The notes beneath the pieces are model-generated. The model was given only the letters and a program-made list of their open reading frames with translations. It ran no database searches and was not told the origin of the DNA. DNA of 64,000 nt from a virus. The stretch spans positions 2,916-66,915 of the IMG/VR virus record IMGVR_UViG_3300026118_000005; one strand, 5' to 3'. Of this stretch, positions 14,508 to 64,000 are shown in pieces. The position numbers were made by a program, and so were the translations under genes. Each line of letters begins with the position of its first letter. Position 1 is the first letter of the stretch.

Positions 14508-14526
14508 AGACTGTTTGCCTACTGAC

Positions 14527-15711: not shown

Positions 15712-15939
15712 AACGGCAGAGAAAGAAAGTGGGTGAAAAGAGGAGTAGCAGACCGCACAAGCGCGGATGCCAGATGACGAATAGCCGGGATGCGTGTCCC
15801 TGTTCGCCGTGGGGCCAATCGGCTAAAAGCCCCGTACTCCTCTGTAGCGCACACTCTCCAGCGTCAGAGGCCGCTAGGGAAGGCTCTTGGTTTGCATCTG
15901 CTCACTGATGCCCGCAGAGCGATGCGGTTAAGCAGGTGC

Positions 15940-17776: not shown

Positions 17777-18171
17777 ATTGGCGATTTGACGGTTTGTTCT
17801 TGGGCTTGACGGCGCAGTTCACGCTCGGCTTTTTCAACGGTTTGCTCAGCTTCCCATTGCTCGCGGGTTTTGGTCAGTTGAGGGTCTAGACCGTGGGAGT
17901 ATTCATCGGCTTGCGTGAACATTCCTTCGCCGAAAACGGGTTGCGTAAGTTCTTCCAAGAGATCCACGAAGCGATTGATGCCGATGCACTCATGCAGTGC
18001 GCAGCTATTGTTGTCGCTCTGGTGGATGCCCGGCTGAAACGTCGGAGCCTTGCGCGGCTGGCCATGCTCCCGCTGAATAGCCGCAATGGCTTCCTTCGCG
18101 ATGGGATGCGACAGCAAGTCCTGCAACACGCTTCGGCGCTCGTCGGATTGGCGGAATTCTATGGAGGTCAT
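17773..18171 (-). CDS. Hypothetical protein
   Basis: Coupled ORF between portal and scaffold. Confidence 0.6.
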   Translation of the reverse strand: MTSIEFRQSDERRSVLQDLLSHPIAKEAIAAIQREHGQPRKAPTFQPGIHQSDNNSCALHECIGINRFVDLLEELTQPVFGEGMFTQADEYSHGLDPQLTKTREQWEAEQTVEKAERELRRQAQEQTVKSPI

Positions 18172-18713
18172 GTGCATTCGTCCCAATTGGCAATGATTTG
18201 GTCAGCCACGTTACAGGCTAGAGATCCATCGGAGATCATCTCGGCGATGGCCCGGTCCATCGGGTTAGATTTGTCCGGTTCGTCGTATGAGAATCCCAAC
18301 TTCCGAACAGTGCCATCGACACATTCGCATGCAGCCATTCCTACCCACCCATAAAACCGAAGGGTCTTTGTATAGTCATCAATCCAGAATGGGAACACCA
18401 CCACTAATCTGGCAGGATAGGTTTCTCCGCTTGCGGGACTAACTCCTGACGGCACAAAACCAACAAAGCACGGGGACACATCTTCCTCATGATCAAAGCG
18501 AAAGTCTTCGGCAATCCACCCCTGAGAAGTCTCTGTAAACTTTGGCGGCACTCCCAATATGTCCGTCACGCACCATTTCATCATCTCCACTTCCGAATGA
18601 CGCCATTTGCCCATTTGCAGGCGAAGACATTGCGGTCTCTTAAACCATCCGGCAATCGCATGGAACGGCGCGAACAGAGACGCCAGCAGCGTCGAAAAAG
18701 TCCTTCGATTCAT
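18168..18713 (-). CDS. Hypothetical protein with twin-arginine-like N-terminus
   Basis: MNRRTFSTLLASLFAPFHAIAG; overlaps the portal stop. Confidence 0.55.
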   Translation of the reverse strand: MNRRTFSTLLASLFAPFHAIAGWFKRPQCLRLQMGKWRHSEVEMMKWCVTDILGVPPKFTETSQGWIAEDFRFDHEEDVSPCFVGFVPSGVSPASGETYPARLVVVFPFWIDDYTKTLRFYGWVGMAACECVDGTVRKLGFSYDEPDKSNPMDRAIAEMISDGSLACNVADQIIANWDECT

Positions 18714-22297: not shown

Positions 22298-22609
22298 TTA
22301 ATCTTGATTGCAGTTATAGGAATTGTCAACGGGGCTTTGCGGTGGGCAGCTCATGGAGTGCCAAACAATTTCCCCAACGTAGTCCACGGGGTCGAAGGAG
22401 GTTTGCGCAGAGTGCCACCGCGGATCGCCCTGGGGGATTACCACAACCCTGCGTCCCGTGACGGGCTTTGTGGGAAGCCGTAGCGATCCATAAAGATCCT
22501 TCACTGCCTGCTTGAATGCCTGCCACGCACAGAAGATTTCCTCTTTCTTGCGCTCTCGCATTTCCTGCCGAGTTAGGGAGTATTCTTCGGTGATGTATCG
22601 TTTACTCAT
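22298..22609 (-). CDS. Hypothetical protein
   Basis: 103 aa coupled ORF. Confidence 0.5.
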   Translation of the reverse strand: MSKRYITEEYSLTRQEMRERKKEEIFCAWQAFKQAVKDLYGSLRLPTKPVTGRRVVVIPQGDPRWHSAQTSFDPVDYVGEIVWHSMSCPPQSPVDNSYNCNQD

Positions 22610-23870: not shown

Positions 23871-24691
23871 GGCTCAATCTCGATCACAGGGTCAGGCGCG
23901 GTCAGTAACCGCGCTATGTAGCTCGGAGTAGCATGCCCGCGAGCCGATAGCCAGCGTTGTACGGAGTCTGGCATGTATCCGTAGTAAGGTTCCAATAGGT
24001 GGGTGAATTCGCACTCGGTTTCGTGGAGTTTCTTGCCCGTTTCTTCCCCAGCGGACAACCGCGGATCTCCGCGTCCGAACCACCAGTGAAGTACTACGTT
24101 AGCCTTTCGATAAAAGGCATCAGTCTTGCGCAGAAAGCCAAGATGGAAAATCTTGAGTCGGTCATCGTAGGTCCCCTCGTCCAGCAATGGCACTTCTCCA
24201 GGATGATGAGGTTCGTCCGAGCACATGACGTAGTTCGCTGGCCCCATGCGAGCCACCCTGCGAGCGCAGCAATGGCCATCGGGAATGATGGAACGAGGAT
24301 CGCGCCAGAAATTCAGCCGGTGAAAGAACCGGCACTCTCCCTTTGAAGCTGCCTCCCGCACCGCTGCATGACACTCTGGCGAGTCCGAAAGCACTTCATC
24401 GGCGTCGAGGGTGATCTGCATGTCGGTTGAAAGCTGTTCCCGTGCGAAGTTCAGCCACTCGACAAACCCGCGATGACTCACGCCTTTCTCGTTCTTCCAC
24501 GGAAAGTTGGCGTAGCGAATCTTCGACTCTCTCTCCATCCATAGTTCGATTGCCTCCTTGGTCCCATCGGTCGAATCCGAGTCCGCGATAACTACTTCCT
24601 CGCAGACGGGGATAAGAGACGCCACAGCTTCCCGCCAGGAGTAATCAAGCGAGTCGCCATTCCTAACTACAACATATCCTCCGAGTGTCAT
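23864..24691 (-). CDS. Glycosyltransferase family 2
   Basis: EVVIADSDSTDGT, ITLDADE, IFHLGF. Confidence 0.85.
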   Translation of the reverse strand: MTLGGYVVVRNGDSLDYSWREAVASLIPVCEEVVIADSDSTDGTKEAIELWMERESKIRYANFPWKNEKGVSHRGFVEWLNFAREQLSTDMQITLDADEVLSDSPECHAAVREAASKGECRFFHRLNFWRDPRSIIPDGHCCARRVARMGPANYVMCSDEPHHPGEVPLLDEGTYDDRLKIFHLGFLRKTDAFYRKANVVLHWWFGRGDPRLSAGEETGKKLHETECEFTHLLEPYYGYMPDSVQRWLSARGHATPSYIARLLTAPDPVIEIEPW

Positions 24692-25455
24692 TTCTGCTTC
24701 TCCAGCCAAAAGCGTTGGGTTTCTGTGATGTCATTTTCGAACCACATTTCTGACGGGTCAACTGGCGGAAGCTTGGATTCGGGGTTCGTCGCGCAAATGA
24801 AGACTTGCGGCCAGTAGACGCCATCGCAAAGAACGTGATGATTCCAGAAGACGGACGGCCACGGGCACCGCGCCAAAAGTTCGCCAAGGCGAAAGACCTG
24901 TTGGAGGATGGGCTCCGATGGCTTGCAGGTATTTCCGATATAAATGATGTCCGTGGCAATGAGCACGCGATCCGTGGCAGCGCCGAACAGGGAATCAATG
25001 CACTCGAAGGGGCTTAGAATGTATTCCAGCACATTCAAGCACTGAGCGATGGTAAACTTCCGATCTTGCGCCGGGACAATGCCGCCTTTGGCATCGAAGC
25101 CGCCAACTATGACCTTGTAGTCAGCGTTCCACAGGGATTTCAAAAGCTCATACCTGGGAGCGTCGGTTTCCTCTCCCAAATGCGGGTAAGTGTCCCCGTT
25201 GACCACAATCTCACCGTTGCCATGAAAGTTCAATCCATGCGCTTTCCCTCCGCGTTGCTCAAATCGCAGGCAATAGTTTCCTTCGGCGGAACCGATGTCT
25301 AAAAGGGAAAGGCCCGTGGCATCCTTCGGAACGCACCGATGCCAGCAAGCGTCATTCCATATCTGATTAGACTTCCACGCTCCGTCATTGTGATACAATG
25401 GCGATCCGTCGGGATGGTAAGCGGTTCCGTAGAAGTTCTTTGGCAAGTTGCTCAT
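24688..25455 (-). CDS. Class I SAM-dependent methyltransferase
   Basis: SLLDIGSAEG motif I; CLNVLEY. Confidence 0.7.
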   Translation of the reverse strand: MSNLPKNFYGTAYHPDGSPLYHNDGAWKSNQIWNDACWHRCVPKDATGLSLLDIGSAEGNYCLRFEQRGGKAHGLNFHGNGEIVVNGDTYPHLGEETDAPRYELLKSLWNADYKVIVGGFDAKGGIVPAQDRKFTIAQCLNVLEYILSPFECIDSLFGAATDRVLIATDIIYIGNTCKPSEPILQQVFRLGELLARCPWPSVFWNHHVLCDGVYWPQVFICATNPESKLPPVDPSEMWFENDITETQRFWLEKQK

Positions 25456-32658: not shown

Positions 32659-34716
32659 TTAATTGGGAATGTAGTCGTCGCCCCACCCGTCGCCACCGCC
32701 CCAGGAGATCGTTTCCATCGGTGGAGGGAGTTTGCGTGCCTTTTTGAGTGCTTCGGGCGATGTGAGGCCCCAAGCTTGCTCCACCATTTGGGTGATCGGA
32801 TCTTGCGTCGGACCTTTCGGGAGTTCGGGGCGCTTGAGCTTGAGCGAGCACCGGAACTGGAAGCGGACGCGAGCCAGGAACACGACGCCGAGGGAGGCAT
32901 CGGCCAAGTCCGGGGAGAATCCCAGCCGACCCTTCATCTTCTTCTTCTCTTCGACCTTGATGAGCTTCCGCGCCCCGAGATTCCACGTCCTAGCGCACAT
33001 CTCGGCGGAAAGCTCGTCGTCCACGCCCTTCAACTGGCCAGCCTGCATGTAGGCTTTCGCGGCATACCAGATCTCGGAAACCACGTCCTCGTATTCGTCC
33101 TTGGCCAAGCGCCCGAAACCGCCATCAACTTCACTCGGAACTCCCTTGAACTGGACGCGCAGAAAGCCGTTGTCCCAAACGGTGGCTAAGATCGAAGCGA
33201 ACGCGTGCCCTCCCGAGCAGTCGATAGCCAGTCGGAACGTGGAATTGACGCCGTTCTCCAGGCAAAACTTCTTGAGCCCGTCCGCACGCTGGAAATTGGG
33301 GTCGCGCTCCTTGTTGGTCGTGTCCTCTTTGATGCACTCTTTCGGCCCGAGTAAAAGGACATTCTTGCCTTCCAAAGTTTCTCCCAGTTGACCGATCCGC
33401 GCCATGAACCTGTCGCCGCCGGTCGTGAATGAGGGGTCGGCAAAGCATAGGGCGACCGGAGGAGCCTTCCACCGAACGGTTGTCTGGAACGCCAACGCCT
33501 GGATGATCTCAATGGGATGGTAAATCGCCTCCTTCGCGCCCGCCGGGGTGAACCAGCCACGATTCATCCGGTAGAATCCTGCGGACTTCTCACCGCCGTA
33601 CCTGATGGCGTCTTCCTGCATGGACTTCTCAGTGATGAGGTAATCGTACATCACGCGGCCTGCGAGCACGTTCGGACTCTTTGCCCCATCGAGGCGCAGG
33701 CAGTAGCCGTTGGGGAGCGTCGTGCGCCAGCCCTCCAGTTCTTCGTGTAGGAACTCCCATCCTGCCGCCGGTTTCACGAATTGCCCGAATGCGTCGAAGT
33801 AGCTGGACGGGTTGGCGAGTCCGATCTGCTGGAAGTGCGGGTTCTTGTTCAGGTTGGACGCCGCCTTGTTCACAGAATCAGCGAGATCCGTCATTTCGTC
33901 CAGAATTAGGAGGACATACTCATTGTGGAAGCCGAAAATCTTCGAGTCCACCGCAGCGCCTTTCTGCCGGTCCGCCGCCAGGAGCGTGATGCCAGCTCGC
34001 TCGTCTCTCACGCCTTTCTCGTCCTCGTAGGCGATGCATCCGTCGGACGCCAAGAGCTTGCCCGGCATCTCCATTCCATAGCGCTCCAGCGAATTCTTGA
34101 TCGCATTGAAGTACTGCTTGGTATAGCCCCAGATTCGCTTCTCCGCGTCCTTCTGCGTCGTACTGGCGACGATCACCATCGTATTGTGAGGAGAGCACAG
34201 CCACGAGATGCACGCCCATAGCCCGTAGCACGCTGACTTACCGGAAGCGGCACAGCCCGCCACGCCGAGGTACTTGTGTTTGCACGCCTTGGCGATCATC
34301 TTCTCGGCCCAAGGATGCCGGTCAAACTTCGAGCCACTGTATTCGTTGTTGATCAGCATCTTGACCAGCGTCCAGAAGTGCCGTTCCTTGTCTGCGGCCT
34401 TCGAAATGGAGAACATCTTGAGTTCGTAAATGATTTGCTCCGGCGCTGTCGCCTGCCGCGCCGGATCTTCCACCGGGTTCGTGATGTGACACGAGACGCG
34501 TTGGCCATAGCGAATCACGAAGTCCAGTTTCTTCGCCTTCGCCGCTTCGGCCATCAGCTTATGGTCGTTCTGCGAAATGTAGGTCCCGTTCCAGGGAATC
34601 CAGCCATTCTTGATGAAATCCTCGTGGCACCATTTCAGCTTGCCGTCAGGGAAAGCGCTCCCGTCTTTGCGGGTGATGTACTTGACAGGATCTTCCTCTT
34701 CCAGAACGGCAGACAT
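32659..34716 (-). CDS. terL: Terminase large subunit
   Basis: Walker A GCAASGKS, Walker B LILDE, motif III LANP, nuclease acidic residues FADPS..GGDR and SPDLADA. Confidence 0.9.
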   Translation of the reverse strand: MSAVLEEEDPVKYITRKDGSAFPDGKLKWCHEDFIKNGWIPWNGTYISQNDHKLMAEAAKAKKLDFVIRYGQRVSCHITNPVEDPARQATAPEQIIYELKMFSISKAADKERHFWTLVKMLINNEYSGSKFDRHPWAEKMIAKACKHKYLGVAGCAASGKSACYGLWACISWLCSPHNTMVIVASTTQKDAEKRIWGYTKQYFNAIKNSLERYGMEMPGKLLASDGCIAYEDEKGVRDERAGITLLAADRQKGAAVDSKIFGFHNEYVLLILDEMTDLADSVNKAASNLNKNPHFQQIGLANPSSYFDAFGQFVKPAAGWEFLHEELEGWRTTLPNGYCLRLDGAKSPNVLAGRVMYDYLITEKSMQEDAIRYGGEKSAGFYRMNRGWFTPAGAKEAIYHPIEIIQALAFQTTVRWKAPPVALCFADPSFTTGGDRFMARIGQLGETLEGKNVLLLGPKECIKEDTTNKERDPNFQRADGLKKFCLENGVNSTFRLAIDCSGGHAFASILATVWDNGFLRVQFKGVPSEVDGGFGRLAKDEYEDVVSEIWYAAKAYMQAGQLKGVDDELSAEMCARTWNLGARKLIKVEEKKKMKGRLGFSPDLADASLGVVFLARVRFQFRCSLKLKRPELPKGPTQDPITQMVEQAWGLTSPEALKKARKLPPPMETISWGGGDGWGDDYIPN

Positions 34717-34807
34717 GCGGGAAAGAGCATACGTTGCGCGTCAAGCAGGAGCAATTCCGATTGAAAGTGCTTGCACTTATCGGGAGGCGTGGGACTTTTG
34801 CCGAAGT

Positions 34808-35662
34808 ATGGACTACATAGCCGAAGAGTTTACGAAGGCCACAATTGCAGAGATCGTCAAGATGGGGACGAAGCTGCAAGAGATGGCCACTCGCAATGGT
34901 GAGTTGGAGTGCAAACGCTTGGAAGATAGCAAATTACGGGACCAACTGATTGCCGATGTGAAGCGCCTGCAAGCGATGGGCAACTCCAAATCCCCCTGGG
35001 TCGCCCGCTCGGAGCGCATGCCTACGGAGGCGGATTGTGACGAACACGGAGAGATATTTGTAACTTCCCCTGACGCTGGCGCCTGCGCATTGCGCCTTAA
35101 GCCAGCCCTTGCGGACTTGACGTGGACCCACTGGATGCCCACCCCGCCGCTTCCAAAAGCCGTTCAGCCGGTCAAGTATCCCGCGTGGACAAGAGCGCAT
35201 GATCCGCGCGGTAGAGCCGAATCCCGTCCTGGCATGCGATTTCTCGTACCTGAGGAAGTGGATGGGAGACACAAGGGGATTGCCCTTCAATGGATGGGGA
35301 GCAAATGGAGCGCCGATTGTGAGGCGAACAGCCCGAATCAAACCTACGAAGTCCCCGCCTCCACCCCGTTCCCGCATCGGTGGGAGCGAGAGAAGAAACA
35401 GGCTGAGGCTGATCCGTCGATCAAGTGGCAAACCAAATCGCTCAACAATGGGGAATGGGGTGATTGCAAACCGGCCTGGATTGAGGAATGCGAATACCGC
35501 GTCAAGCCCGAGATCAAGCCAAAGTGGCGGCTGCTGGAGGTCGGCGAAGAAATACGGCAAGGGGATCAACTCTGGCGAACGGTTGATTGGCACGATTCAA
35601 CAGAGATTGGCGACACGATAGACATCAACCACCTTCCCCACCGCCGACTTATCACACCATGA
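34808..35662 (+). CDS. Mosaic hypothetical protein (DUF551-like segment)
   Basis: WVARSERMP...THWMPTPPLP plus several W-rich modules; divergent from terL. Confidence 0.6.
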   Translation: MDYIAEEFTKATIAEIVKMGTKLQEMATRNGELECKRLEDSKLRDQLIADVKRLQAMGNSKSPWVARSERMPTEADCDEHGEIFVTSPDAGACALRLKPALADLTWTHWMPTPPLPKAVQPVKYPAWTRAHDPRGRAESRPGMRFLVPEEVDGRHKGIALQWMGSKWSADCEANSPNQTYEVPASTPFPHRWEREKKQAEADPSIKWQTKSLNNGEWGDCKPAWIEECEYRVKPEIKPKWRLLEVGEEIRQGDQLWRTVDWHDSTEIGDTIDINHLPHRRLITP

Positions 35663-36972: not shown

Positions 36973-37269
36973 ATGAGAAAAATCTACATTGTCTCTACAT
37001 GGAAGGGAGAAATGCGCGAGGTCCACGGGGTGTATTCAAGCCGCGCGAAAGCCCAGAAGGCAGCAACCGTCGTTGGCAAAGACGCCGACATTGACGATTG
37101 GGATCTAAATGAGATGCCGGACAAGTCGCCAACGAGTTACATGAGAAAATCGGCACGCAAAATGTTGAGGGCCGTCCGCGCCATTTCCCGAAACGGTGGC
37201 CGAGTTTCCGCTTTGATACTGAAAGACAAGATGCCGGAGAACCTGGGCGTAAATTGGACAACCGTATGA
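36973..37269 (+). CDS. Hypothetical protein
   Basis: MRKIYIVS...VHGVYSSRAKAQKA, motif recalled from small phage proteins. Confidence 0.55.
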   Translation: MRKIYIVSTWKGEMREVHGVYSSRAKAQKAATVVGKDADIDDWDLNEMPDKSPTSYMRKSARKMLRAVRAISRNGGRVSALILKDKMPENLGVNWTTV

Positions 37270-40661: not shown

Positions 40662-41252
40662 CTACTCATCAGCCGAGGACAACGCGTCGAAGTCGAATTC
40701 GGACACTGGCGCGGACTCAATCACCCGGCCTGTAACAGCTCGCTCGCTCGGTGTAACAGCCTGGGAATCGCCTTTGAGGCTGATGAAGTGCACCGACGCA
40801 GTAGCTTTCGCCTCCTTCGTGTCCAGGCCGGCCACCTTGTAGCCTACGTTGACGGCTGCCTGCATGTCGCGCCAGTTCCGAATGTCCGGCAAACCCTCCT
40901 CTGTAACAGTTACAAGCTTCTCCCTCACCTTTTCAGCAAGAAGCACCGGTATTTCCTCACGAAACCTGCCAATTTGGTCGGTGGAAGCCTGGATTCCGGC
41001 GTGTCTGGAGTCCTTTGTTACAACTGTTACACGGCCTTGTTTTATGGCCTTTGCAGCGGCTTCAGCTTTTACAGTGCGAGGGACGGCCCAGCCTTCTCTG
41101 TGGGATCGGACGCGGAAGGATGTGGAGAGGCGTTTAACCTCTTCGGGGTCATCTGGGTTACTGGCGTAGCGTTTGGCGAGTTCGGTCCAGCCTACGCCTT
41201 GGATAGCAGCTTGCTCGACTGCGGCCCAATCAATGTCCAATGCGGCTGGCAT
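40662..41252 (-). CDS. Terminase small subunit-like HTH protein
   Basis: IDWAAVEQAAIQGVGWTELAKRY N-terminal HTH..REGW, helical middle and acidic tail; next to the skew switch. Confidence 0.55.
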   Translation of the reverse strand: MPAALDIDWAAVEQAAIQGVGWTELAKRYASNPDDPEEVKRLSTSFRVRSHREGWAVPRTVKAEAAAKAIKQGRVTVVTKDSRHAGIQASTDQIGRFREEIPVLLAEKVREKLVTVTEEGLPDIRNWRDMQAAVNVGYKVAGLDTKEAKATASVHFISLKGDSQAVTPSERAVTGRVIESAPVSEFDFDALSSADE

Positions 41253-41543: not shown

Positions 41544-42208
41544 GGGGTTACAGCCTGCTTGATTGAATTGAGCGATGTCAGCGGCGGTTCATGCGTTGGA
41601 TGGCGTGGCGTGCGTTGCAATCCACTCCTTGCTGAGCCATTCGGGGAATGTTTCTCCGTCCGGTTGGTGAAGCAAGTAGGGCCGATCAGGCGAGGCTTGG
41701 GAAGCCTGGGACATGATGTGGAACATTTTGACGGTTCCATCGGGGCTGCGCACTGGGGTGAGGGACCAGACTGGGCGTTCTTCGGTGGGTTGATTTGAGT
41801 TCATGAGTTTGTGCGTGGTATGGTGAGAGTTGCGGAGCCTTTTCGATGGCTACCCAATCGATGTCGAGAGCGCAGGGCATTAGGCGAAAGTGTTGAGTTG
41901 GCGAAGGATGGGTGCGCCGTCTTTGCTGATTAGCAGGACTTTACTTTCGACTGCATTGAATGCGTGTCTAAGTTCGGCGGTGGAGGGGAGTGGTCGGAGC
42001 TTACGCTTGGTATCGGCGATGACCTTGCGGGATCGAGCGAGACCAACGAGGGAGGGTTTAACTTTGCGCAAATATCGGTCAGCGCGGATGGCATTTCCGT
42101 TCTTAATGGCCTCGCAATAGCTTTCGATGGCGCAAAGTAGGGAGCTTTTTAACTCTCGTTCGGCCTTGGCTGCGCAGGCCAGGATTTGGGTGTGCTGTTG
42201 GCGAGCGG

Positions 42209-42358
42209 TCATTTGCAGGGGTAGGGAGGCAGCACGCGGTAACGCATCCGATACCAGCGGCCATGGGCGCGCCACTCGGAAGGCTTTTGGGATGCTTTGG
42301 CGAGCGGGGCGACAGCGAGAGCCAGGAGGGCTGTGAGGAAGGATCGGCGGTGTTTCAT
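42209..42358 (-). CDS. Twin-arginine-like mini-protein (49 aa)
   Basis: MKHRRSFLTALLALAVAPLAKA; ATGA-coupled. Confidence 0.55.
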   Translation of the reverse strand: MKHRRSFLTALLALAVAPLAKASQKPSEWRAHGRWYRMRYRVLPPYPCK

Positions 42359-42732
42359 GCTTTCACGAGTCTTTCTCTGACGGAAGGGTGGAGGAAGCGA
42401 GGGTTGTAGATCGTGCGTGGAGTGATCCACTTGAAAGGCTGCGAGGCGTCCTGTTTCAGGTAATCCACTTGAATGCTGAGCACGGTCCATCGTGAGGCTG
42501 GGAAATGGCCTTCGTTGCCATCGCGGTAATGCATCGTCAAATGGTCCTCAGGGTCGATGTAGATGCGTTCGATGTCGGTGGCGAACATAATCCAGTTGGC
42601 TTCATTCCACAGGAACACCTGATGGCATTGGGGAACGTCTATCTGGCGAATCTGAGGGGCTGCACTCGGCGGAACTGCCAGCGCAGTGACAGGCGCGGCT
42701 ATCGTGGCTTGGAGGATGTGGCGGCGGTTCAT
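42355..42732 (-). CDS. Twin-arginine-like protein
   Basis: MNRRHILQATIAAPVTALA; coupled. Confidence 0.55.
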   Translation of the reverse strand: MNRRHILQATIAAPVTALAVPPSAAPQIRQIDVPQCHQVFLWNEANWIMFATDIERIYIDPEDHLTMHYRDGNEGHFPASRWTVLSIQVDYLKQDASQPFKWITPRTIYNPRFLHPSVRERLVKA

Positions 42733-42935
42733 GCGTTCGCTCTTTCGTATCCGTGGAATGTCGAAGGCTGTGCACCATCAGCGATAAGCTGGCGGTAAAT
42801 GTCGTCTAGCAGTGCCTGCGTTAGACGTGATGCTGGCATGACTGGTGCGGCAACCGGCGCAATCCTGACCTGCAAGTCTAGGCAGAGTCCCGCGATGAAG
42901 CAACCGAGGGAGGAGATGAGGGAGCGGCGGGTCAT
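42729..42935 (-). CDS. Twin-arginine-like mini-protein carrying a capsid-like segment (68 aa)
   Basis: MTRRSLISSLGCFIAGL...PASRLTQALLDDIYRQLIADGA, 15/22 identical to the capsid protein segment. Confidence 0.65.
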   Translation of the reverse strand: MTRRSLISSLGCFIAGLCLDLQVRIAPVAAPVMPASRLTQALLDDIYRQLIADGAQPSTFHGYERANA

Positions 42936-43179
42936 TACGTCCTCCCGAGATAGCGATGATTGCCTTTGCCGTCGCGAATGAGTTGAGCCTTGCGCATGTA
43001 TCCCTGAGCGGTCGAACTCTCCCACCGTTGCAGGTGCAGTCTTTCTCCATCCAGTCGCTTGCGGTCTTGGTATACGCGAAGACGCGCGATACGCTGGCGT
43101 TCGGTTTTTGGCACTAGTCGTAACGACCGTGGATTATCCCGAGGGGACAACATGCCCAAAGAAAAGATCGACCCCCAGC

Positions 43180-43455
43180 TCACTTCGTTACCTCCTGCGC
43201 GACTTTGCTGAGCTTTGCCCTGCGCTTGGGGCTGTAGGCACTCACGTGGGTTCTGGCGGCGTCTGCGGCCTTCTCCAGGGCTTCCGATTGATCGACCGGC
43301 AGTTTCTTGGGCCTGCCAAGCTTCCCGCTGGCCTGAGCCTTCTTCCAGTTCTCGCGTGCTGCGGCTGACTTAGCCTCTGACTTGATGCCAGCGATACGGC
43401 GGCAGTGGTCCGCGAGTGTGACGGGAGGCAATGGAGCCTCGGGAAGTGCTTTCAT
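43180..43455 (-). CDS. Small basic DNA-binding-like protein
   Basis: KSAAARENWKK...GRPKK (AT-hook-like); promoter TTGACT-16-CACACT lies 7 nt upstream. Confidence 0.6.
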   Translation of the reverse strand: MKALPEAPLPPVTLADHCRRIAGIKSEAKSAAARENWKKAQASGKLGRPKKLPVDQSEALEKAADAARTHVSAYSPKRRAKLSKVAQEVTK

Positions 43456-43903: not shown

Positions 43904-43932
43904 TTGACACATAACGAACACGCTGGTATTAT
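43904..43932 (+). promoter_or_regulatory. Near-consensus sigma70 promoter
   Basis: TTGACA-17-TATTAT; ATG of 43939 follows 6 nt later. Confidence 0.8.
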
Positions 43933-45595: not shown

Positions 45596-45949
45596 CTAGC
45601 GTTCGTCAATACGTTCTTTCCAGCTTTTATGCACCACCACGCCTCTCTTCTCCATTATGGCCACATATCGGTCGCGGTATTCTTGAACCTCAGAGGCGTG
45701 CTCATGGAGATTCCCAAACACGAAGCAATGGCACTTCTCTGCCGCCATGATGTCCGCTCGAAGTTGAACACAGTCCAAACACGTCTTGTTACAGTCCGCG
45801 CGCCCATCCCAAATACCATCATATCGCTCGTAGAATTCTCCTGGCTCAATCCAGCCACGGCACTCGCAACATTTGTGCCTCTTTCTAGCCTTCGGTCTAG
45901 TTTCGTGGAATACGCTTGGGCTTTCCGCATAATCACAGTCGCAACTCAT
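45596..45949 (-). CDS. Cys-rich Zn-binding phage protein
   Basis: KARKRHKCCECRGWIEPGEFY...KTCLDC. Confidence 0.65.
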   Translation of the reverse strand: MSCDCDYAESPSVFHETRPKARKRHKCCECRGWIEPGEFYERYDGIWDGRADCNKTCLDCVQLRADIMAAEKCHCFVFGNLHEHASEVQEYRDRYVAIMEKRGVVVHKSWKERIDER

Positions 45950-46204
45950 AGTCCTGATCCTTTCTGTAGTTTCACTCTCTGGCTCCTCGGTGGTTGGTTT
46001 GCATGGCTAGTTCTGGCGCACGTTGAGCCTGTAGCCATTCGTGCATCTGACGCGAGTATCGTTCTCGCCATCCTGGGAACTGGCGGTCGCGCTCGTCGTT
46101 GTGCTGGGCGATCAATTCTTGAATCTCGCTCATGCTCTTTCCTTCGCCGAGCGCTTTCGCAATCGCATCGGTCGTTCGCTCGCGGTTCGGGTAGGTTGGG
46201 TGAG

Positions 46205-57151: not shown

Positions 57152-57466
57152 ATGAACCTGCAAGAATCGGTTAAGCTCATCATGGAAAGTCTGCCTGCGC
57201 ACAAGGCAAGCCTGGACATCCATCACAACAATCACCTGTCCTGTTATCTCACCGTCCAAGAAGCAATTGATGACGAATGGGAAGAGTTCAAGGAAGACGT
57301 CTGGGTGAGCGAGGAGGAAAAGCAAAGGGCCATTGAAACGAACGAATGCTGGTCCCTTCAGTGGTATCCTGACACGCCATGCGGATTCAATCTCAAGAGC
57401 GCATCTACTCTTTTGGCGCTCCTTCAAGCGGTGGCACCCACTGAGCCTTCCCCAAAATCCGATTGA
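57152..57466 (+). CDS. Hypothetical protein
   Basis: HKASLDIHHNNH...WSLQWYPDTPCGF. Confidence 0.6.
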   Translation: MNLQESVKLIMESLPAHKASLDIHHNNHLSCYLTVQEAIDDEWEEFKEDVWVSEEEKQRAIETNECWSLQWYPDTPCGFNLKSASTLLALLQAVAPTEPSPKSD

Positions 57467-57968
57467 TCGCGTTGTGCAGCGCCACGGTTGACGAGTAGAG
57501 CGCCGTCCTGCTGGAATAGTCCATCGTTACCGTTCTCAGCGCCTCTGCCAAATGCTCTTTGCAGGCACAGCCAAACGACGGAACCTTTTTGCGCCACTCC
57601 ATGAACCATCTCTCGGCGGAAGCCATCTGCGTAGGCGTAGGTTCATCGAAGTAGTTCTGGGCGTACTCGTGAAGCTCCTTCCACAAGGCACGCCCGATCT
57701 TCACCAACTCGGGCAATGGCCCCTCGGCTTCGTCGTGGCACGGAATCTCGGGATGCTGGCGGCAAACCCCATCCCAGACGCGCTCTTGCCAGCCGTGCGC
57801 TAGATCGTGGGAAGCACCCTCTGCGTTGGCTGCTGAACGAGCCTGGAAGACTGCGCGGATGAGAGAGTTTGGATGCGTCTCGGCAAACGGGTGATTCAAC
57901 AATTCGTCGTGAAACTGCCAGCCTTTGGGGCCTGGAACGTAGATGAAATTATCAGGAACTAGGGGCAT
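57405..57968 (-). CDS. Erv1/Alr-like FAD sulfhydryl oxidase domain protein
   Basis: GRALWKELH, GCACKEH, SRTALY..VALHNAINRILGK match the Erv signature G..W..LH / CxxC..H / HN.VN..LGK. Confidence 0.7.
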   Translation of the reverse strand: MPLVPDNFIYVPGPKGWQFHDELLNHPFAETHPNSLIRAVFQARSAANAEGASHDLAHGWQERVWDGVCRQHPEIPCHDEAEGPLPELVKIGRALWKELHEYAQNYFDEPTPTQMASAERWFMEWRKKVPSFGCACKEHLAEALRTVTMDYSSRTALYSSTVALHNAINRILGKAQWVPPLEGAPKE

Positions 57969-60900
57969 CAGTGAAGGCGCATGGCTTGTTTGGCTTGTTT
58001 CGTGGCATCGGCGGCAACTTTAGAAAGAAGGTGCTCCGCCTCTTCGCTCGGCAAGGTCTGCAAGTCGCGCATGGAACGGCGCAGGGATTGTTTAATAAAC
58101 TGTCCGCGCCTTATTACGTAGTCCTTCCAAAGCGAATCACTGATGATCCCGTTTTTCGACTCTAGAGCACGGCGGCTAGGAGGATCTGGAGCCATTCCAC
58201 GCTTGGTCAAAACGCTGTAAAGCATAGCGTCTTTGCTGTCTGGATCAACGGCAACGTAAAGCGGTAGACCAGCGAACCAAGCGCGATCAGATGCTTTCGT
58301 GAGCAAATCTTGAGGTTCTTGGCCGATAGGATCGCCTAGACCATTCAAGGCTCGATCTCCAGAAAACGGGGCGACGGCAGGAAGCTGCGCCATCACCGCA
58401 GAGCGCAAACTGGATTGATCTTGGGGGCCCGAAATTGCTCTGCCGAGACTCTTGAGGAGTCCCGAGAAAGGCACCAGAGGTGCAGAGGAGTAAGTCACAT
58501 TCGACGCTAAGTTTTGCTCTGTCATAGGAGCAGCCGCCGCAGCGGAATTACGAAGGCCGAAAAACTGCGCCTGCTGTTTGAGGCTTTGCAATGCGGTCTG
58601 CATGTATGCGCCAGCCCACTCAGCGTCCTTTTCGCTATGCAACTTGCCATTTAACTTCATGTCGTTCAAAGTTCCGAGCAGAAGCGCTGGAATTTTCCAA
58701 CTTTCAAAACCTCCCCGCGCCCAAGGTAGCGCAGCGATAACTTTGCCATCCGATCCACGGTATTCGATAGCGCCAATGTGATGCCCTTGTTTTGCCCACG
58801 CGTCACGCTCACCTTTGCCTTGCGGCCCTGCACCTGTGATATCGAATCCAGCGCCATCCTTGTCCTTTGAAGCCAGCAACGCGCCTAGGATGGTCAACCC
58901 GATGGTTCCAGCAACGCCCTCGATCATGCGTTGGCGAACGCTGTAATCGGTGCCTAGGGATTCCGTGTAGAGCTTGCGAGGCTCGAGGCGCTTGGCGTCC
59001 ATGGAATGCGCCAGGATGCGCGCTAGGCCCACGGGAGTGAAGGCAAAAGAGCGGTTGAGCAGATTGGCCGGCACGGCTACGAACCCCGTCAACATCCGGC
59101 CCAACAATGGCCAGTCTTTGCGCGAGGCTTGAGCCGCACCTTTCACGGTCTCGGCCAGGAAGTTCGGGAGATCGAACCAGTGACCCTTCTCGCCCTTCCA
59201 GTTTCCAAGCTCGTAATCGGCTTCAAGAGTCGTGTGTTTTAGCAACTTCTCGCCTGCGCCGGGAACGTACTCTTCCAGCGTGTCGCGAATAAATTGGTTG
59301 CTAGCGTCGTGAGCGATCAACCGCGCTTCGTCAGGTTTGTATTCGCCTACCTTCTCTGCGTAAACCTTCTGGCCTATCATGTCGGCCTCGTGCATGAGGG
59401 TTGCAGCCTCCTTCACGCTCATGCCAGCCTTGGAAACAAGTTCCCGCATGGCCACTTCATGCGTCAAGAATCGCTGAATCACCGTGTTATGCGCTTGGTC
59501 CATCGCGGACAAGATGCGTCGCACCATGTCGGTCGAGGACCATGTTGCCGTCATCGCGGCCTTGGCCTTGGCGAGAGGCTTAGCGTTCGGATCACGCAAC
59601 GTCTCCATCGCATCGGAGAACGACTTGTGAAGGTTCCCAATGTTGGATAGTTCTCGAACCTGTTTGGAAGCAAAGGCGTCATTGCGTGCCGACACTTTGA
59701 ATTCATCGACAAACCGTTTGTAAGCCTCAAAGAAGTTCGAAACGGTGTGCTTCATCAGCCCAGCGGCTTGACCCATCGTGAGCTTTCCGGTCGCCACATC
59801 GGCCAAGAGTCCAGCGTTCGCCACGCCAAGCCGGGAGATCATGCCGAACACGGGAGCCGTGGCATTTTGCCCAAACGTCGAAGTGCTGGAAAGTGCGCTG
59901 TTCGTCCACGACTTCACCAAGATCTCACGCATGGACTTGGGAATCTGTGCGTGCTCAAGGATGCGCTCCATTTTGGAGATCGCCAGCAGCCTTTCGTGCG
60001 GAGAAGGCGACTGCATCTTTTCGTCCAGCGCAGCAAGTTCCCGCCACTTCTCAGGGGACAGCTTGCGGAATCCAGACGCTTCGGCCAACGCTTCGAGAAC
60101 GCCCGTCGGCTCTGCGCCCGCGACCTGTGCAGGGTCTAGGTAGGAACGAATCGCCTTCTCGACACTGGCGAGCGTGGCCTTGTTGAGATCCAGACCTTCG
60201 GCAGCTTTGCGGAACGCCTTCACGTTTGCTTCCGTCCAGTGCCTTTCCAGCCGGGAGCCGATCCAGTCCACGTAAGCCTTCGCCTGCGAGTCGGTGAGCC
60301 CCCATTCCTTGGCCGCATCTATAGCCACTTGGCGGCGCATCGCAGGGTCCTGCTGCTGGGATTTCGCGAGCCGGAATTGTGCGGCGATAATGCCCTTGTC
60401 GAGGCTTGACCGTTCGACTTGGCGGAAGATTCGATCCGTTTGGGTTGCGGAGAGGGTCTGGCTTTTGCGATAGAGGCGATCCAGCAGCGTCCGGGCATCT
60501 GCCGGGGGCACTTTCAACGCTTCGAACTGCGGAAGATACGTCTTCACGAATGTATCGCGATCCATGCCAGGATTGATGTCCTTCACCGCCTCATTTGCCA
60601 GCTTGCGAATCTCGTTCTCTTTCTTCTCCGTGTTCAGCCACTCGGTTTGCGACTTGTCGATGGAGTCGATAATGTCCTTCGTGACTGCCGTCGCTTTTGC
60701 GGTCTTGTATTCGTCGCTGTTGATTCGCTTCTCGCGGGCTTCATCCCGTGCAAGCTTGCGTGCTGCGTTCGCTTTGTGCGTCTCGTGCGCCTCATCGAAA
60801 ACTCGCGATGCCAGCTTGTCGGAGACGCCCAGCTTGCGCATCTTCTCGGTAAACGCGTCCAATGGCTCTGGCTTCTTCGCCTGGGCCTCGTACGCCTCTT

Positions 60901-63900
60901 GAATGGCGCTCTTGGTGCGTTGCTGCGCTCCCTTCTCCCGACGCGCCTTGAGCCGGTCTACGAGCCTTTGAGCTTCTTCGTCTCCGCGCGTGGCGTCCTT
61001 GATGTCCTTGACGTTGACGCGGGCCTTGTTGCCAGTCGCGTCCTCCAAAGCGTCCAACTTACGAAGGGAATCTCTCAACTCAGCCTGAACCTTCTTGATC
61101 TCCGTGCGGATCTCTTCGACGGACATATCCCCGCCTTCGGTCGCTGCATAGCGCTTCTTGCCTTTTGGCTCCTTTGGGAGCTTGGCCTGCAATTCCTCCA
61201 GGCGTGCCACTTGCCCCTTCAAATCCTTCGTTAATGCACTTTGCTGGGAGGCGATCTCCGGCTCAACGCCTTTCTTCCATCCTTGAGCGACGGTGTGTTC
61301 TTCCTGCTGTTTCGCCAACTCCTCGGCTGGCGCTTCAAGGATCGCGCTTGCGGCCCTTTGGCCCGATGGCGTCTCTGCCTCCTGGGCGATTCGCTCTTCG
61401 ACTTCCCGGCGCACGTCTCGGGAGTTCTGCGATGCTTCGAGATTGGCAGCCTTTTCCTTTCCCTTGGCGGTTTTCGCTGCGGCCTCGGCTTTAGAGGCCT
61501 GGATTTGACGGTAAGTGTCCTCGAATCCCTCCTGATTCATGACCCACTTGCGAGCCTGGAGGATTCGGCCAGCGGCCCCGAGAGATGCGAATGTGCCAAC
61601 GCGCACATGATTTGCCATGTCGTGAGTCAAACGAACTAGCGAGAAATCCCCGGTCTTGTGGAAGTTCCGAACGGCGTATTGCATCAGCGCCGATTGCAGC
61701 ATCACGCCCCCGGCTTCGTAAGTGGGGAATGCATCGCCTGCATCCAGTTGAGTACGCGCTAGCATGTTCACGAACTCGTGACCGTAGGATTGGTTGCCAA
61801 TCATTTTGTTGACAACCTTGCGAATTTCCTTGGTGTTTTCTGGGGTAACTGGCGGCAATCGACCATCTCCGGCCGTATCCGAACCCGTGACATCAGCAAG
61901 GAAATCGGTCACGTGGTTATAAAGTTTACTCGCGGACTGACGTGCCTTCGCCGTCTCCGAAGGACCGCCGAAAACCTGCTCAACTTCGCGCGGGTTGTCC
62001 TCGAAGAACTTCTCCGCGTTTGTCTGCCATTCATCATAGGTTGTTCCCCCGGTCCCCGAAATCCCAGGGCGGTGCTTCTCGCCTTCGTGTCCCGCCTCGG
62101 GATCGCGCGTGGTTCCCTTGAGGGGCGCACGGGATGTCTGGGCGTAACGGCGCAGCTCGGGATAATCATGCCCGCGCCGCCGCTCGATCATGTCGTCAAT
62201 CCGCTCGTCCAAAGCCTCGGGGGTCTCGAAGGGATTCTTGAGCAATTCCCGCATGTGATCCTTCACCCCATCGCGAATTTCTGGACGTAGGCCCCTCTGC
62301 CATTCCCCAGGCTCGGTCAAAGATCTCCAGTCCAAGGGTCCGGCTGGCTTGGAGGGAAAGGGGGATGTGCGGACGTCCCGATCCCATGCCAACATATCTG
62401 CAAAGATACTGGCGTAAAGATCCTTCCGCTCTTGGGACACTTCCCGAAGAGAAGAGAAATCCGCTTCTCCTGGGAGGACCATAGCACTGCCTACCGCCAA
62501 AGCCTGCAACCGAGAACGCCACTTCCGGAGACGAGAAAGCTCATGCACCTGCTCGGGAGGAAGTTCCCCCGCCTGCTCTGCTTGCTCCAGTTGCGCCAGT
62601 CGCATGGACTTGGCTTCATCTTCGTCATGGAGGCGTTGGATCTCGCGGGCTTCGCGATCCTTCGCGATCCGCATTCCCTGCAACTGGCCGCTCGTTTCCT
62701 CCTCGATCTTGCGAATGGAATCCTCGATCTTGCCGAACGCTTCCTTGAGTGAGTTGCCGTAGTCGCCTTTCGCTGCCTTGCGTGCAAATTCCTTTAGCTG
62801 GTTCGTCTCTTCGCCAGACAACTTCCATTCGGACATCGTGCCGTTGGCGTGGAGGTTCGCAGCTTCGTAGAGAAGGGCGTTGAAAACCTTGCGAGCTTCA
62901 ACATCGGATGGCTTGCTAGTTGAGCGGCGCAACGCCAGTGTGATCTTTCGAAGAATCTCCCCGCGATCTTTAGCCGAAAGCTCCTCGCCATGGAGAGCAT
63001 GGAGAGCGGCTTTGATTGCTGCTTTCGCGGCTGGATCATTTTGGCGGTACGAGCTGGAAATGGCTGTGTAAGCCGCTGTCTTAGCCGCTTCGTCAATGGC
63101 GTTGGATGCTGCCAATTGCCCACGCATCCTTGCAATGAATGCGTCCTGATCTACAGGAGACATCTCTTCAAATGCCTCGTGGAGATTTGGCGACACGGAA
63201 AGGGTTAGCTTGCCGTCGGTGTCTCGGTCGATGGTGTAGAGTCGGTCACCGTCGGAGAGTTCTTTGACTTCCGCTCCTGCACCTTTTCCCATGCCTTCCA
63301 CAAGGCGTTTGAAGCTCCTGCGGGCGTTAACTTCATCCGGTGCCAGAATTTCTGCACCGCTTCGCTTTCTTGATTCGGCTTGTCGCTCATTGAATTCCCT
63401 TTCGTTGGTTCGGATTGCTTCGCGGACACGTCCCCAGAACCGCATGAGTTCCGTGTCTGTCGGGTCAGTTTTGCCCGTGATTTTCTGCCAAAGTTTTTTC
63501 AGCCACGCTACGAACTTGCCGCCCAAGGAATCGGGAGGAAGTTTCGATCCTTCCTTGATTTGTGCCGCAACCCATTCCTCTTCCGCAAGTGCTCGTTGTG
63601 CATCGTTCGTTCGCCAGTCCTTGAGGCTGTACAAATCGGCGATGGCGTCGAGTTCGAACTCCGGTATTTGCTTCACCAATCCCTCGTATTCCTTCCAAAG
63701 CTCAGGATGCGCTGCCTTGATTAGGTCTTTGCCCTTGTGGAATAACTCATGGGACATCCACTGATAAGCCGCTTCCTTAGCCGATTGACCGGGGAGGCGT
63801 TTCATGTTCGCGGCAATCGTGTGAATGATGCCGTGCTCCGTGTAAACGGCTGCTCGACTGTCACCCATCGAATCCGCAAGACGGTCGAAATAATCATGCA

Positions 63901-64000
63901 CACGTTGTTCCCCCGAGTGCATACGCCCGTAATTCCGCATCGCTTCCGCATCCTTGTGGACAACCACGGTTCCGGGCGTGAGGCCATATTCACGCTCAAT
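57968..64000 (-). CDS. Giant internal virion/ejection (polyvalent-type) protein, 5' end beyond window
   Basis: Frame stays open to base 64000 (at least 2010 codons); helical, A/K/E-rich; HELFH HExxH motif near the window end. Confidence 0.8.
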   Translation of the reverse strand: MEREYGLTPGTVVVHKDAEAMRNYGRMHSGEQRVHDYFDRLADSMGDSRAAVYTEHGIIHTIAANMKRLPGQSAKEAAYQWMSHELFHKGKDLIKAAHPELWKEYEGLVKQIPEFELDAIADLYSLKDWRTNDAQRALAEEEWVAAQIKEGSKLPPDSLGGKFVAWLKKLWQKITGKTDPTDTELMRFWGRVREAIRTNEREFNERQAESRKRSGAEILAPDEVNARRSFKRLVEGMGKGAGAEVKELSDGDRLYTIDRDTDGKLTLSVSPNLHEAFEEMSPVDQDAFIARMRGQLAASNAIDEAAKTAAYTAISSSYRQNDPAAKAAIKAALHALHGEELSAKDRGEILRKITLALRRSTSKPSDVEARKVFNALLYEAANLHANGTMSEWKLSGEETNQLKEFARKAAKGDYGNSLKEAFGKIEDSIRKIEEETSGQLQGMRIAKDREAREIQRLHDEDEAKSMRLAQLEQAEQAGELPPEQVHELSRLRKWRSRLQALAVGSAMVLPGEADFSSLREVSQERKDLYASIFADMLAWDRDVRTSPFPSKPAGPLDWRSLTEPGEWQRGLRPEIRDGVKDHMRELLKNPFETPEALDERIDDMIERRRGHDYPELRRYAQTSRAPLKGTTRDPEAGHEGEKHRPGISGTGGTTYDEWQTNAEKFFEDNPREVEQVFGGPSETAKARQSASKLYNHVTDFLADVTGSDTAGDGRLPPVTPENTKEIRKVVNKMIGNQSYGHEFVNMLARTQLDAGDAFPTYEAGGVMLQSALMQYAVRNFHKTGDFSLVRLTHDMANHVRVGTFASLGAAGRILQARKWVMNQEGFEDTYRQIQASKAEAAAKTAKGKEKAANLEASQNSRDVRREVEERIAQEAETPSGQRAASAILEAPAEELAKQQEEHTVAQGWKKGVEPEIASQQSALTKDLKGQVARLEELQAKLPKEPKGKKRYAATEGGDMSVEEIRTEIKKVQAELRDSLRKLDALEDATGNKARVNVKDIKDATRGDEEAQRLVDRLKARREKGAQQRTKSAIQEAYEAQAKKPEPLDAFTEKMRKLGVSDKLASRVFDEAHETHKANAARKLARDEAREKRINSDEYKTAKATAVTKDIIDSIDKSQTEWLNTEKKENEIRKLANEAVKDINPGMDRDTFVKTYLPQFEALKVPPADARTLLDRLYRKSQTLSATQTDRIFRQVERSSLDKGIIAAQFRLAKSQQQDPAMRRQVAIDAAKEWGLTDSQAKAYVDWIGSRLERHWTEANVKAFRKAAEGLDLNKATLASVEKAIRSYLDPAQVAGAEPTGVLEALAEASGFRKLSPEKWRELAALDEKMQSPSPHERLLAISKMERILEHAQIPKSMREILVKSWTNSALSSTSTFGQNATAPVFGMISRLGVANAGLLADVATGKLTMGQAAGLMKHTVSNFFEAYKRFVDEFKVSARNDAFASKQVRELSNIGNLHKSFSDAMETLRDPNAKPLAKAKAAMTATWSSTDMVRRILSAMDQAHNTVIQRFLTHEVAMRELVSKAGMSVKEAATLMHEADMIGQKVYAEKVGEYKPDEARLIAHDASNQFIRDTLEEYVPGAGEKLLKHTTLEADYELGNWKGEKGHWFDLPNFLAETVKGAAQASRKDWPLLGRMLTGFVAVPANLLNRSFAFTPVGLARILAHSMDAKRLEPRKLYTESLGTDYSVRQRMIEGVAGTIGLTILGALLASKDKDGAGFDITGAGPQGKGERDAWAKQGHHIGAIEYRGSDGKVIAALPWARGGFESWKIPALLLGTLNDMKLNGKLHSEKDAEWAGAYMQTALQSLKQQAQFFGLRNSAAAAAPMTEQNLASNVTYSSAPLVPFSGLLKSLGRAISGPQDQSSLRSAVMAQLPAVAPFSGDRALNGLGDPIGQEPQDLLTKASDRAWFAGLPLYVAVDPDSKDAMLYSVLTKRGMAPDPPSRRALESKNGIISDSLWKDYVIRRGQFIKQSLRRSMRDLQTLPSEEAEHLLSKVAADATKQAKQAMRLH

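Follow-up and report, generated by a model that had tools for sequence, protein, structure and literature searches.

We analyzed a 64,000-nucleotide stretch of DNA (the window), which comprises bases 2916-66915 of the 66,915-bp virus record IMGVR_UViG_3300026118_000005, from an uncultured 67-kb soil phage. The record has direct terminal repeats and its completeness is rated at 100%. On the minus strand of the window, at 42729-42935, lies a small gene (the mini-gene) whose product of 68 amino acids (aa) begins MTRRSLISSLGCFIAGL. This mini-protein has a leader with two adjacent arginines (an RR leader), then a 22-residue patch that resembles part of the phage's major capsid protein, and then a short tail. 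An earlier note, made from the sequence alone, had pointed out this resemblance and had suggested that the mini-protein might be a membrane-tethered decoy for a capsid sensor or an inhibitor of capsid assembly in related phages. Overall, we find that this interpretation is partly supported.

The mini-gene and its capsid patch

The mini-gene looks like a real gene, judging by its strong Shine-Dalgarno site, its overlaps with its neighbors, and its coding score. Its ATG and the TAA of the preceding gene share bases (TAATG), as do its stop codon and the next ATG (ATGA). Its frame ranks first of the six by a codon log-odds score for which 17 long genes from the window were the training set. It is part of a chain of six small genes with such overlaps, all on the minus strand (43180-43455, 42935-43183, 42729-42935, 42355-42732, 42209-42358, and 41880-42212), and for each of the six, its own frame is the best by codon log-odds. 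A strong promoter-like sequence upstream (Table 1) points away from this operon and appears to mark a divergent, early-looking control region; the mini-gene is probably expressed early. Few genes in this region are conserved: just 4 of the 20 proteins encoded between 36 and 48.6 kb gave any match in five related genomes, and for the six operon genes the sole match was from the mini-gene to a capsid gene. Four other DNA runs yielded nothing but short contigs of low depth, and most of the stretch was not covered. One of these contigs, of 132 nucleotides and from another soil sample, covers codons 1-36 of the mini-gene with two synonymous changes and one replacement, which is weak evidence from a single low-depth contig.

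The 394-aa protein that the earlier note took to be the capsid protein (14527-15711) is, by its predicted structure, an HK97-fold major capsid protein. Pfam and PHROGs gave no match for it, for the mini-protein, or for the operon neighbors. A search of viral contigs with the single capsid sequence also gave no match; when we queried with an alignment instead, we found 40 loci. Among 1,671 candidate proteins, 52 relatives are 38-52% identical to it (53 proteins with itself). An AlphaFold2 model that was built on the family alignment has a pLDDT (predicted local distance difference test) of 81.4 and a pTM (predicted template-modeling score) of 0.81. The top Foldseek matches of this model are the capsids of Pan3, N4, GP4, and HK97 (E down to 1.2e-9, with 296 matches at E <= 0.001), and its top match in BFVD is "N4-gp56 family major capsid protein." The stretch that resembles the mini-protein contains helix 176-188, which comes next after the long helix (115-145) in the model; pLDDT is 88-90 for these blocks. 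Judging from the order of the elements rather than from coordinates, helix 176-188 would be the first A-domain helix of the HK97 fold.

Residues 34-55 of the mini-protein (42771-42836) are identical to capsid residues 170-191 (15139-15204) at 15 of 22 positions, and the coordinates, sequences, and identity given by the earlier note are exact, codon by codon. The patch has sharp edges, as in the same ungapped register outside of this block, just 3 of 46 positions agree. The alignment is significant by BLASTP and by HMM, a check that the earlier note had called for. In BLASTP, the pair scores 32.7 bits (E = 2e-7); when the mini-protein was compared to the window's 965 six-frame open reading frames (ORFs) with 40 aa or more, the capsid was found at E = 4.6e-5 and the next match was at E = 0.86. 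With the mini-protein as the query, HMMER searched all six frames of the 66,915-bp genome and found one match besides itself, at E = 8.5e-6, in the capsid gene. A profile of the 52 capsid relatives, without the phage's own capsid, matches the mini-gene's ORF at about positions 167-195 of 390 (E = 2.8e-4 for 965 ORFs). In the searches of the clade that are described below, the capsid profile matched this ORF with E = 2.7e-4 per genome or E = 1.1e-4 across 27 whole records.

Two amphipathic helices might resemble each other by chance, and the match is only 22 residues long. If we correct for an all-against-all comparison of the 965 ORFs, then the BLAST match alone has p of about 0.04, and all-against-all BLASTP of these ORFs gave 9 pairs at E <= 0.01, which is about the number expected by chance. 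However, the capsid gene makes up about 0.5% of the database and yet takes part in 3 of the top 5 pairs, and the profile that lacks the phage's own capsid still matches the mini-protein. Furthermore, the best of 500 shuffles scored 27.7 bits (against 32.7 observed), reversed ORFs gave no matches, and the pattern recurs in 8 of 27 related records. We consider a chance resemblance to be very improbable. The strength of the homology comes from the profile match and from the recurrence in related phages, not from the BLAST match by itself.

The similarity is at the level of protein, and we found no DNA-level repeat between the patch and the capsid segment. The two differ at 24 of 66 bases, with 14 of the differences at third codon positions. 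The proportion of synonymous sites that differ (pS) is 0.83, which is saturated, while the corresponding proportion for nonsynonymous sites (pN) is 0.20. We simulated 24 random changes in the capsid segment 20,000 times: on average, 8 of 22 residues remained identical, and the maximum was 14, so no simulation reached the observed 15. Of the five residues in this stretch that are nearly invariant across the family, the patch retains four (L179, Y183, D189, and G190, but not G192). The phage's own capsid is the closest to the patch among the 53 family proteins (15 of 22 identical, versus 5-13 for the others) and among the 23 genomes of the clade (score of 80 versus 61), although the sampling is sparse. 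We regard it as confirmed, from these sequence comparisons, that the patch, a stretch of 22-28 aa, is a true and old copy of the capsid segment at the protein level. The earlier note went further and took the synonymous differences to imply selection on the protein. These differences do not by themselves prove selection on the mini-gene, because a copy from another phage's diverged capsid would give the same pattern.

The mini-protein is not a usual capsid paralogue. It is homologous, over residues 34-55, to a single conserved helix region in the capsid protein of this phage (HK97 fold, N4 gp56-like by fold), but with about 6% of the capsid sequence it could not form the fold, and it fails the full-length family profile, matching only about 167-195 of 390 positions. 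We also rejected two other types of repeats. The patch and the capsid segment do not look like the template and variable repeats of a diversity-generating retroelement: only 42 of 66 bases are identical, and the changes are of all kinds and mostly at third positions (we did not look for a reverse transcriptase). A silent cassette for gene conversion of the capsid gene would not fit with DNA identity of only 64%, and it would leave the leaders unexplained.

Near its N-terminus, the mini-protein matches the motif (S/T)-R-R-x-hydrophobic-hydrophobic of signal peptides for twin-arginine translocation (Tat), followed by an uncharged hydrophobic region (h-region); this is a motif-level test. Like a Tat signal peptide, it has a basic pair and then a moderately hydrophobic stretch (Kyte-Doolittle means of 1.2-1.9 over residues 4-30, in 15-residue windows), and the leaders of several related proteins that are described below read N-R-R-S-[LI]-F-K, which is near the consensus. 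In contrast to typical Tat substrates, the passenger is not a cofactor enzyme but a capsid-derived piece of about 40 aa, and its export is putative. The candidate cleavage sites after the h-region (V-A-A, then P) are poor, and the leader may be an uncleaved anchor. In the ESM Atlas, all feature scores for the mini-protein are below 0.9; two Tat-related clusters at 0.82 are leads only.

Capsid patches in related phages

Close relatives of the mini-protein are rare. An exhaustive search of 1.84 billion representative proteins found two members, which are the mini-protein itself and P0055, a protein of 70 aa that was called independently on one 2,630-bp ENA contig. The two have identical first ten residues (MTRRSLISSL), are 73% identical over the first 30 aa, and have a common ...NA tail, but the middle differs. 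In a single directed test with one target, the middle of P0055 matched positions 113-137 of the capsid profile, within the long helix (E = 1.4e-5), and the next five BLAST matches of P0055 fall at the homologous place in five capsid proteins, none of them significant alone. This is suggestive of one chassis that carries different capsid helices; alternatively, the middle of P0055 could be the same helix in a diverged form. Other searches did not extend the family. A word-indexed protein search found only the mini-protein itself among 3 candidates, and a profile of the two members returned the same two among 4 candidates. No relative was found in scans of viral contigs (with P0055) or of metagenome contigs (with the two-member alignment). 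When we compared the mini-protein to 26 related records, there were weak matches in 3, all within capsid genes.

Small genes with capsid patches recur in the clade. With the capsid profile, we found the capsid gene in all 27 whole records that we searched, along with 11 secondary, partial matches in 8 of the records, and these are small ORFs with capsid patches of 20-55 aa. A local search of 23 genomes likewise gave 11 small ORFs with patches, the mini-gene included (107-190 aa from stop to stop; E <= 0.01 per genome). The earlier note had suggested looking for capsid-fragment mini-genes in related phages; these do exist, but as different fragments in different genes and not as orthologues. 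The patches occur in at least five unrelated families of small genes, and some are permuted (Table 1). For example, the proteins from G012-G015 (and, weakly, from G021) have two patches in permuted order, with capsid positions 286-316 before 254-282. These patches are closer to the capsids of another subclade than to those of their own phages, which rank 14th to 23rd of 23. The protein from G001, with its three collinear patches, resembles a heavily deleted copy of the capsid. In two of the matches, we considered whether similarity to the capsid continues beyond a stop codon (one TGA in each), but the translations show nothing convincing past the stops.

The window contains a second gene with a capsid patch (36973-37269), which is leaderless. 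It matches the profile that lacks the phage's own capsid (E = 4.9e-8), and in the search of 27 whole records E was 4.1e-10. In BLASTP it is 36% identical to the phage's own capsid over 44 aa (E = 3.4e-5), and its coding frame ranks first of the six. It is about as close to other capsids of the clade as to its own (which ranks 6th of 23). A possible third patch gene, 22298-22609, has a marginal match (E = 0.0056 with the profile and E = 5.7e-4 in BLASTP). As a general rule, we rejected the idea that patches co-vary with the phage's own capsid: this holds for the mini-gene and for 22298-22609, but not for 36973-37269 or for the genes of G012-G015. The phage also has three other proteins with RR leaders, two of them encoded just downstream of the mini-gene and one (18168-18713) that is the positional counterpart of the three-patch gene of G001.

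As controls, we fetched 22 related records whole, defined 16 conserved ORF families, and compared each family's profile to all 25,834 six-frame ORFs at full sensitivity. The two capsid profiles gave 9 and 11 patch matches in small ORFs. The profiles for the terminase, f4, f5, f6, f9, and f11 had no secondary match in the 23 genomes. The portal-like family, f1, matched only a piece of itself at the end of a contig, f3 matched the window's own diverged member, and f13 had one match. The matches of f2, f12, and f14 reflect domain sharing and are almost all with ORFs of 219-593 aa. Two matches are marginal, one for f8 (in a 971-aa ORF) and one for f12 (in a 112-aa ORF). When the 25,834 ORFs were reversed, neither capsid profile had any matches. 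The short patches are specific to the capsid, as no comparable set was obtained from 14 other conserved sense-strand families. As a separate observation, f7 is a true domain of about 60 aa, found both within a 270-aa protein and as standalone small ORFs, of which each genome has one or two (such as G006 1089-1472 and G011 45731-46180); it has 20 secondary matches, 18 of which are at 53-75 bits.

The patches are also associated with leaders, and most of them follow an RR or KR leader. Of 18,690 ORFs with 40 aa or more, 38 have a leader-like N-terminus as defined by a simple rule; the same is true of 6 of the 11 patch ORFs, among them the mini-gene. Conversely, 7 of the 38 leader-like ORFs match the capsid profile. 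One additional patch protein (G010a) is missed by the rule, although an RR leader can be seen on inspection. The nominal p-value for this association (2e-14, Fisher test) is inflated, as G012-G015 are orthologues, with G014 equal to G015; if we count independent gene families, then 3-4 of 6 have leaders. The combination of a leader and a capsid patch is a recurrent small-gene design in this clade, capsid-specific and leader-linked.

The patch might nevertheless be evolutionary scrap, a piece of the capsid gene that was acquired through illegitimate recombination by an early gene that evolves fast and encodes a small protein, either secreted or in the membrane. The leader would then be the working part, and the patch would serve no purpose related to the capsid. 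This would account for a near-orphan gene in an operon that is not conserved in five relatives and for the other RR-leader proteins that have no patch, and there is another short duplication nearby, in the same early region (two ORFs on the minus strand have 11 of their 15 N-terminal residues, at 41836-41880 and 41208-41252, in common, MP.ALDIDW...). It is harder to reconcile with the controls, in which patches came almost only from the capsid (the exceptions are the two marginal matches, for f8 and f12, among 14 families), or with the recurrence of patches in at least five unrelated families of small genes, with some permuted. Furthermore, the mini-gene's patch has kept 15 of 22 residues while synonymous sites became saturated, which none of the 20,000 neutral simulations did, and it retains residues that are invariant in the family. 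We consider this explanation unlikely.

Another alternative is that these proteins are head-assembly factors, in which the capsid-like piece would dock on capsid subunits, in place of or alongside a helix or strand, and would steer, tether, or poison the assembly of procapsids, either the phage's own or those of co-infecting relatives. The locations of the patch genes in related phages fit this idea, as they occupy fixed slots among the morphogenesis genes. The patch gene of G001 immediately follows the portal-like gene and precedes f4 and the capsid gene; those of G009 and of G012-G013 lie between f6 and f2, and 22298-22609 sits in this same slot, between f2 and f6. The patches are from N-terminal arm (N-arm), long-helix, and P-domain elements, which make subunit contacts in HK97-fold shells. 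Also, the patches of G012-G015 are nearer to the capsids of another subclade than to their own. However, a positive-inside leader would place the passenger outside of the cytoplasm, where capsids do not assemble, and the mini-gene is in an early-looking operon and not in the head module. For the mini-protein, we give a role in assembly a low probability.

Table 1. Locations of the mini-gene, the capsid gene, and related features. Numbers for patches are positions in the capsid profile. Strands are given where they were reported.
Feature	Record	Coordinates	Strand	Basis or remarks
Mini-gene, 68 aa: RR leader, capsid-derived helix, short tail	window	42729-42935	-	ORF list, codon score, N-terminus of P0055
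Shine-Dalgarno site, GGGAGGA	window	42940-42946	-	4 nucleotides before the ATG of the mini-gene
Leader, residues 1-23: M-T-R-R-S-L-I, then ~15 uncharged residues	window	42867-42935	-	motif level only
Capsid-derived patch, residues 34-55	window	42771-42836	-	15/22 identical to capsid 170-191
Chain of six small genes with start/stop overlaps	window	41880-43455	-	ATGA or TAATG overlaps
Second RR-leader gene, 125 aa, N-terminus MNRRHIL	window	42355-42732	-	PF10518 at 12.1 bits (cut-off 22.7)
Third RR-leader gene, 49 aa, N-terminus MKHRRSFL, clear A-K-A site	window	42209-42358	-	PF10518 at 15.3 bits (sub-threshold)
RR-leader gene, 181 aa, N-terminus MNRRTF	window	18168-18713	-	directly after the portal-like gene; synteny
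Strong sigma-70-like promoter, 11/12 matches, with TG	window	43904-43932	+	consensus match only
Major capsid protein, 394 aa, HK97 fold (predicted)	window	14527-15711	-	family alignment, AlphaFold2 model, Foldseek
Capsid residues 170-191, copied in the mini-gene	window	15139-15204	-	contains helix 176-188 in the model
Second capsid-patch gene, 98 aa, leaderless	window	36973-37269	+	last 44 residues (37135-37266) match N-arm, 8-51
Possible third capsid-patch gene, 103 aa, leaderless	window	22298-22609	-	~22322-22411 match 324-353
Patch gene, 181 aa, leader MKKRSF, three collinear patches (3-26, 97-132, 338-360)	G001	24456-25001 (L070:1460-2002)	-	capsid profile
Patch gene, 97 aa, leader MNTNRRGLFK, N-arm patch with internal deletion	G010			capsid profile
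Two-patch family, 111-131 aa, leader MNRRS[LI]FK	G012	34245-34637		
Same family	G013	34571-34939		
Same family	G014	33763-34125		
Same family	G015	7047-7409		
Same family (weak)	G021	40714-41166		
Leaderless proteins ending in a 337-363 patch	G009, G010			

Possible functions of the mini-protein

We propose that the mini-protein is a capsid mimic that acts at the membrane or on the Tat route, where it would compete with the real capsid protein for a partner; we put the chances of this at about even. The leader would take the capsid-like helix to the inner membrane or into the Tat route, and there the helix would mimic a surface of the capsid and compete with the capsid protein for whatever partner recognizes it. 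Export, binding, and the partner are the parts of this proposal that we infer. A predicted complex of the capsid with residues 27-68 of the mini-protein scored 0.00, but this was run without controls and counts neither for nor against binding.

If the N-terminus of the mini-protein follows the positive-inside rule, then the capsid-like part would be outside of the cytoplasm, which is a poor fit to a simple cytoplasmic decoy for a CapRel-like protein or to a cytoplasmic poison of assembly, and this bears on the two roles that the earlier note had put forward. Cytoplasmic roles would fit if binding comes before or at the engagement of Tat.

Several known systems offer a class of possible partners for a mimic. 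A short peptide from the capsid can suffice for recognition, as in the Gol region of T4 gp23, which is recognized with Lit. CapRel is a host protein that recognizes the major capsid protein (PMC9712102), and Avs7 and Dsr1 provide capsid-recognizing defense (bioRxiv 10.64898/2026.01.04.697583). All of these differ from our proposal in that the known triggers activate the sensors instead of blocking them. In the excerpts of the CapRel and Avs7/Dsr1 papers that were available, we found no mention of phage-encoded capsid fragments or of export leaders. We tentatively suggest that the partner might be a host capsid-sensing factor, which would be captured at or before export. An envelope component, such as a protein of a superinfecting sibling phage, seems a less probable partner.

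In its architecture, the mini-protein is reminiscent of T4 Imm, Sp, and RI, T5 Llp, and HK97 gp15, which are small, have an N-terminal signal or anchor, are encoded at early or moron-like positions, and act at the envelope. To our knowledge, none of these derives from part of the capsid protein of its own phage.

A more specific version of the proposal is that capsid sensors are evicted with the help of Tat. The patch would bind, in the cytoplasm, an immune protein of the host that senses conserved surfaces of the capsid, and the RR leader would then drag this sensor to or through the translocon, so that the sensor is removed as a hitchhiker before or during the accumulation of the real capsid protein. 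We suggest this because RR leaders are used repeatedly and because Tat moves folded proteins and complexes, including by the co-export of hitchhikers (PMC4273604). Patches against different sensors would vary from phage to phage and also among the genes of a single phage, and a common leader with a swapped helix, as in the mini-gene and P0055, would be a cassette system. We consider eviction improbable as things stand.

Several observations weigh against a capsid mimic on the Tat route. First, the assignment of the leader to Tat is by motif. The twin-arginine N-terminus that the earlier note described does have the motif, but it falls short of the thresholds of the curated models: Pfam PF10518 does not match the mini-protein at E <= 10 and, among 10 leader proteins, it gives sub-threshold scores for 3 (12-15 bits, versus a cut-off of 22.7), while no Tat model from NCBIfam (TIGR01409) matches any of the 10. 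Second, leaders and patches occur apart from each other. The capsid profile does not match the three other RR-leader proteins of this phage (42355-42732, 42209-42358, and 18168-18713), and 4 of the 11 patch ORFs are leaderless. Third, the low ranks of the own capsids of G012-G015 imply that mimicry of the phage's own capsid is not general, and the fixed slots of the relatives' patch genes in the head module could point to a role in assembly instead of a decoy. Finally, the mini-protein is nearly an orphan, and P0055 has the leader but not the patch; the saturation of synonymous sites could already have been present in the capsid of a diverged donor.

Full-text searches of the literature, which for the most part reached abstracts, gave no paper that describes genes with a Tat leader and a capsid fragment, and within that scope we did not find this class of gene described. 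If the patches are mimics, then small copies of parts of the head protein, tagged for export, have been made by phages again and again. This would bear on how phages handle the many capsid-sensing systems now known in hosts, or on the control of superinfection or of assembly, and it would indicate which surfaces of the capsid matter. These genes also illustrate one route by which pieces of core genes give rise to orphan genes in phages.

Other features of the phage genome

The window also encodes a large terminase (phrog_2), a DnaB-type helicase, an RNA ligase, and several glycosyltransferases. On the minus strand, an open frame with a length of 2,010 aa or more (57968-64000) runs off the right end of the window. 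Together with the N4-like fold of the capsid, the size of about 67 kb, and the terminal repeats, this giant frame recalls the N4-like phages, which have a giant virion protein.

In the alignment of the capsid family, four cysteines are invariant (C76, C105, C383, and C391), and several of the patch proteins retain the motif around C105 (CFEDARR in G001). A conserved gene for a protein of 187 aa (57405-57968) was labeled, in another note made from the sequence alone, as a candidate Erv1-like sulfhydryl oxidase; these features may be linked to disulfide-bonded capsids.

The capsid gene also has a 420-aa open frame antisense to its whole length (14515-15777 on the plus strand). This frame is open in relatives as well and formed a false "family," f15, among our conserved ORFs; it is most likely a by-product of the codon usage of the capsid gene.

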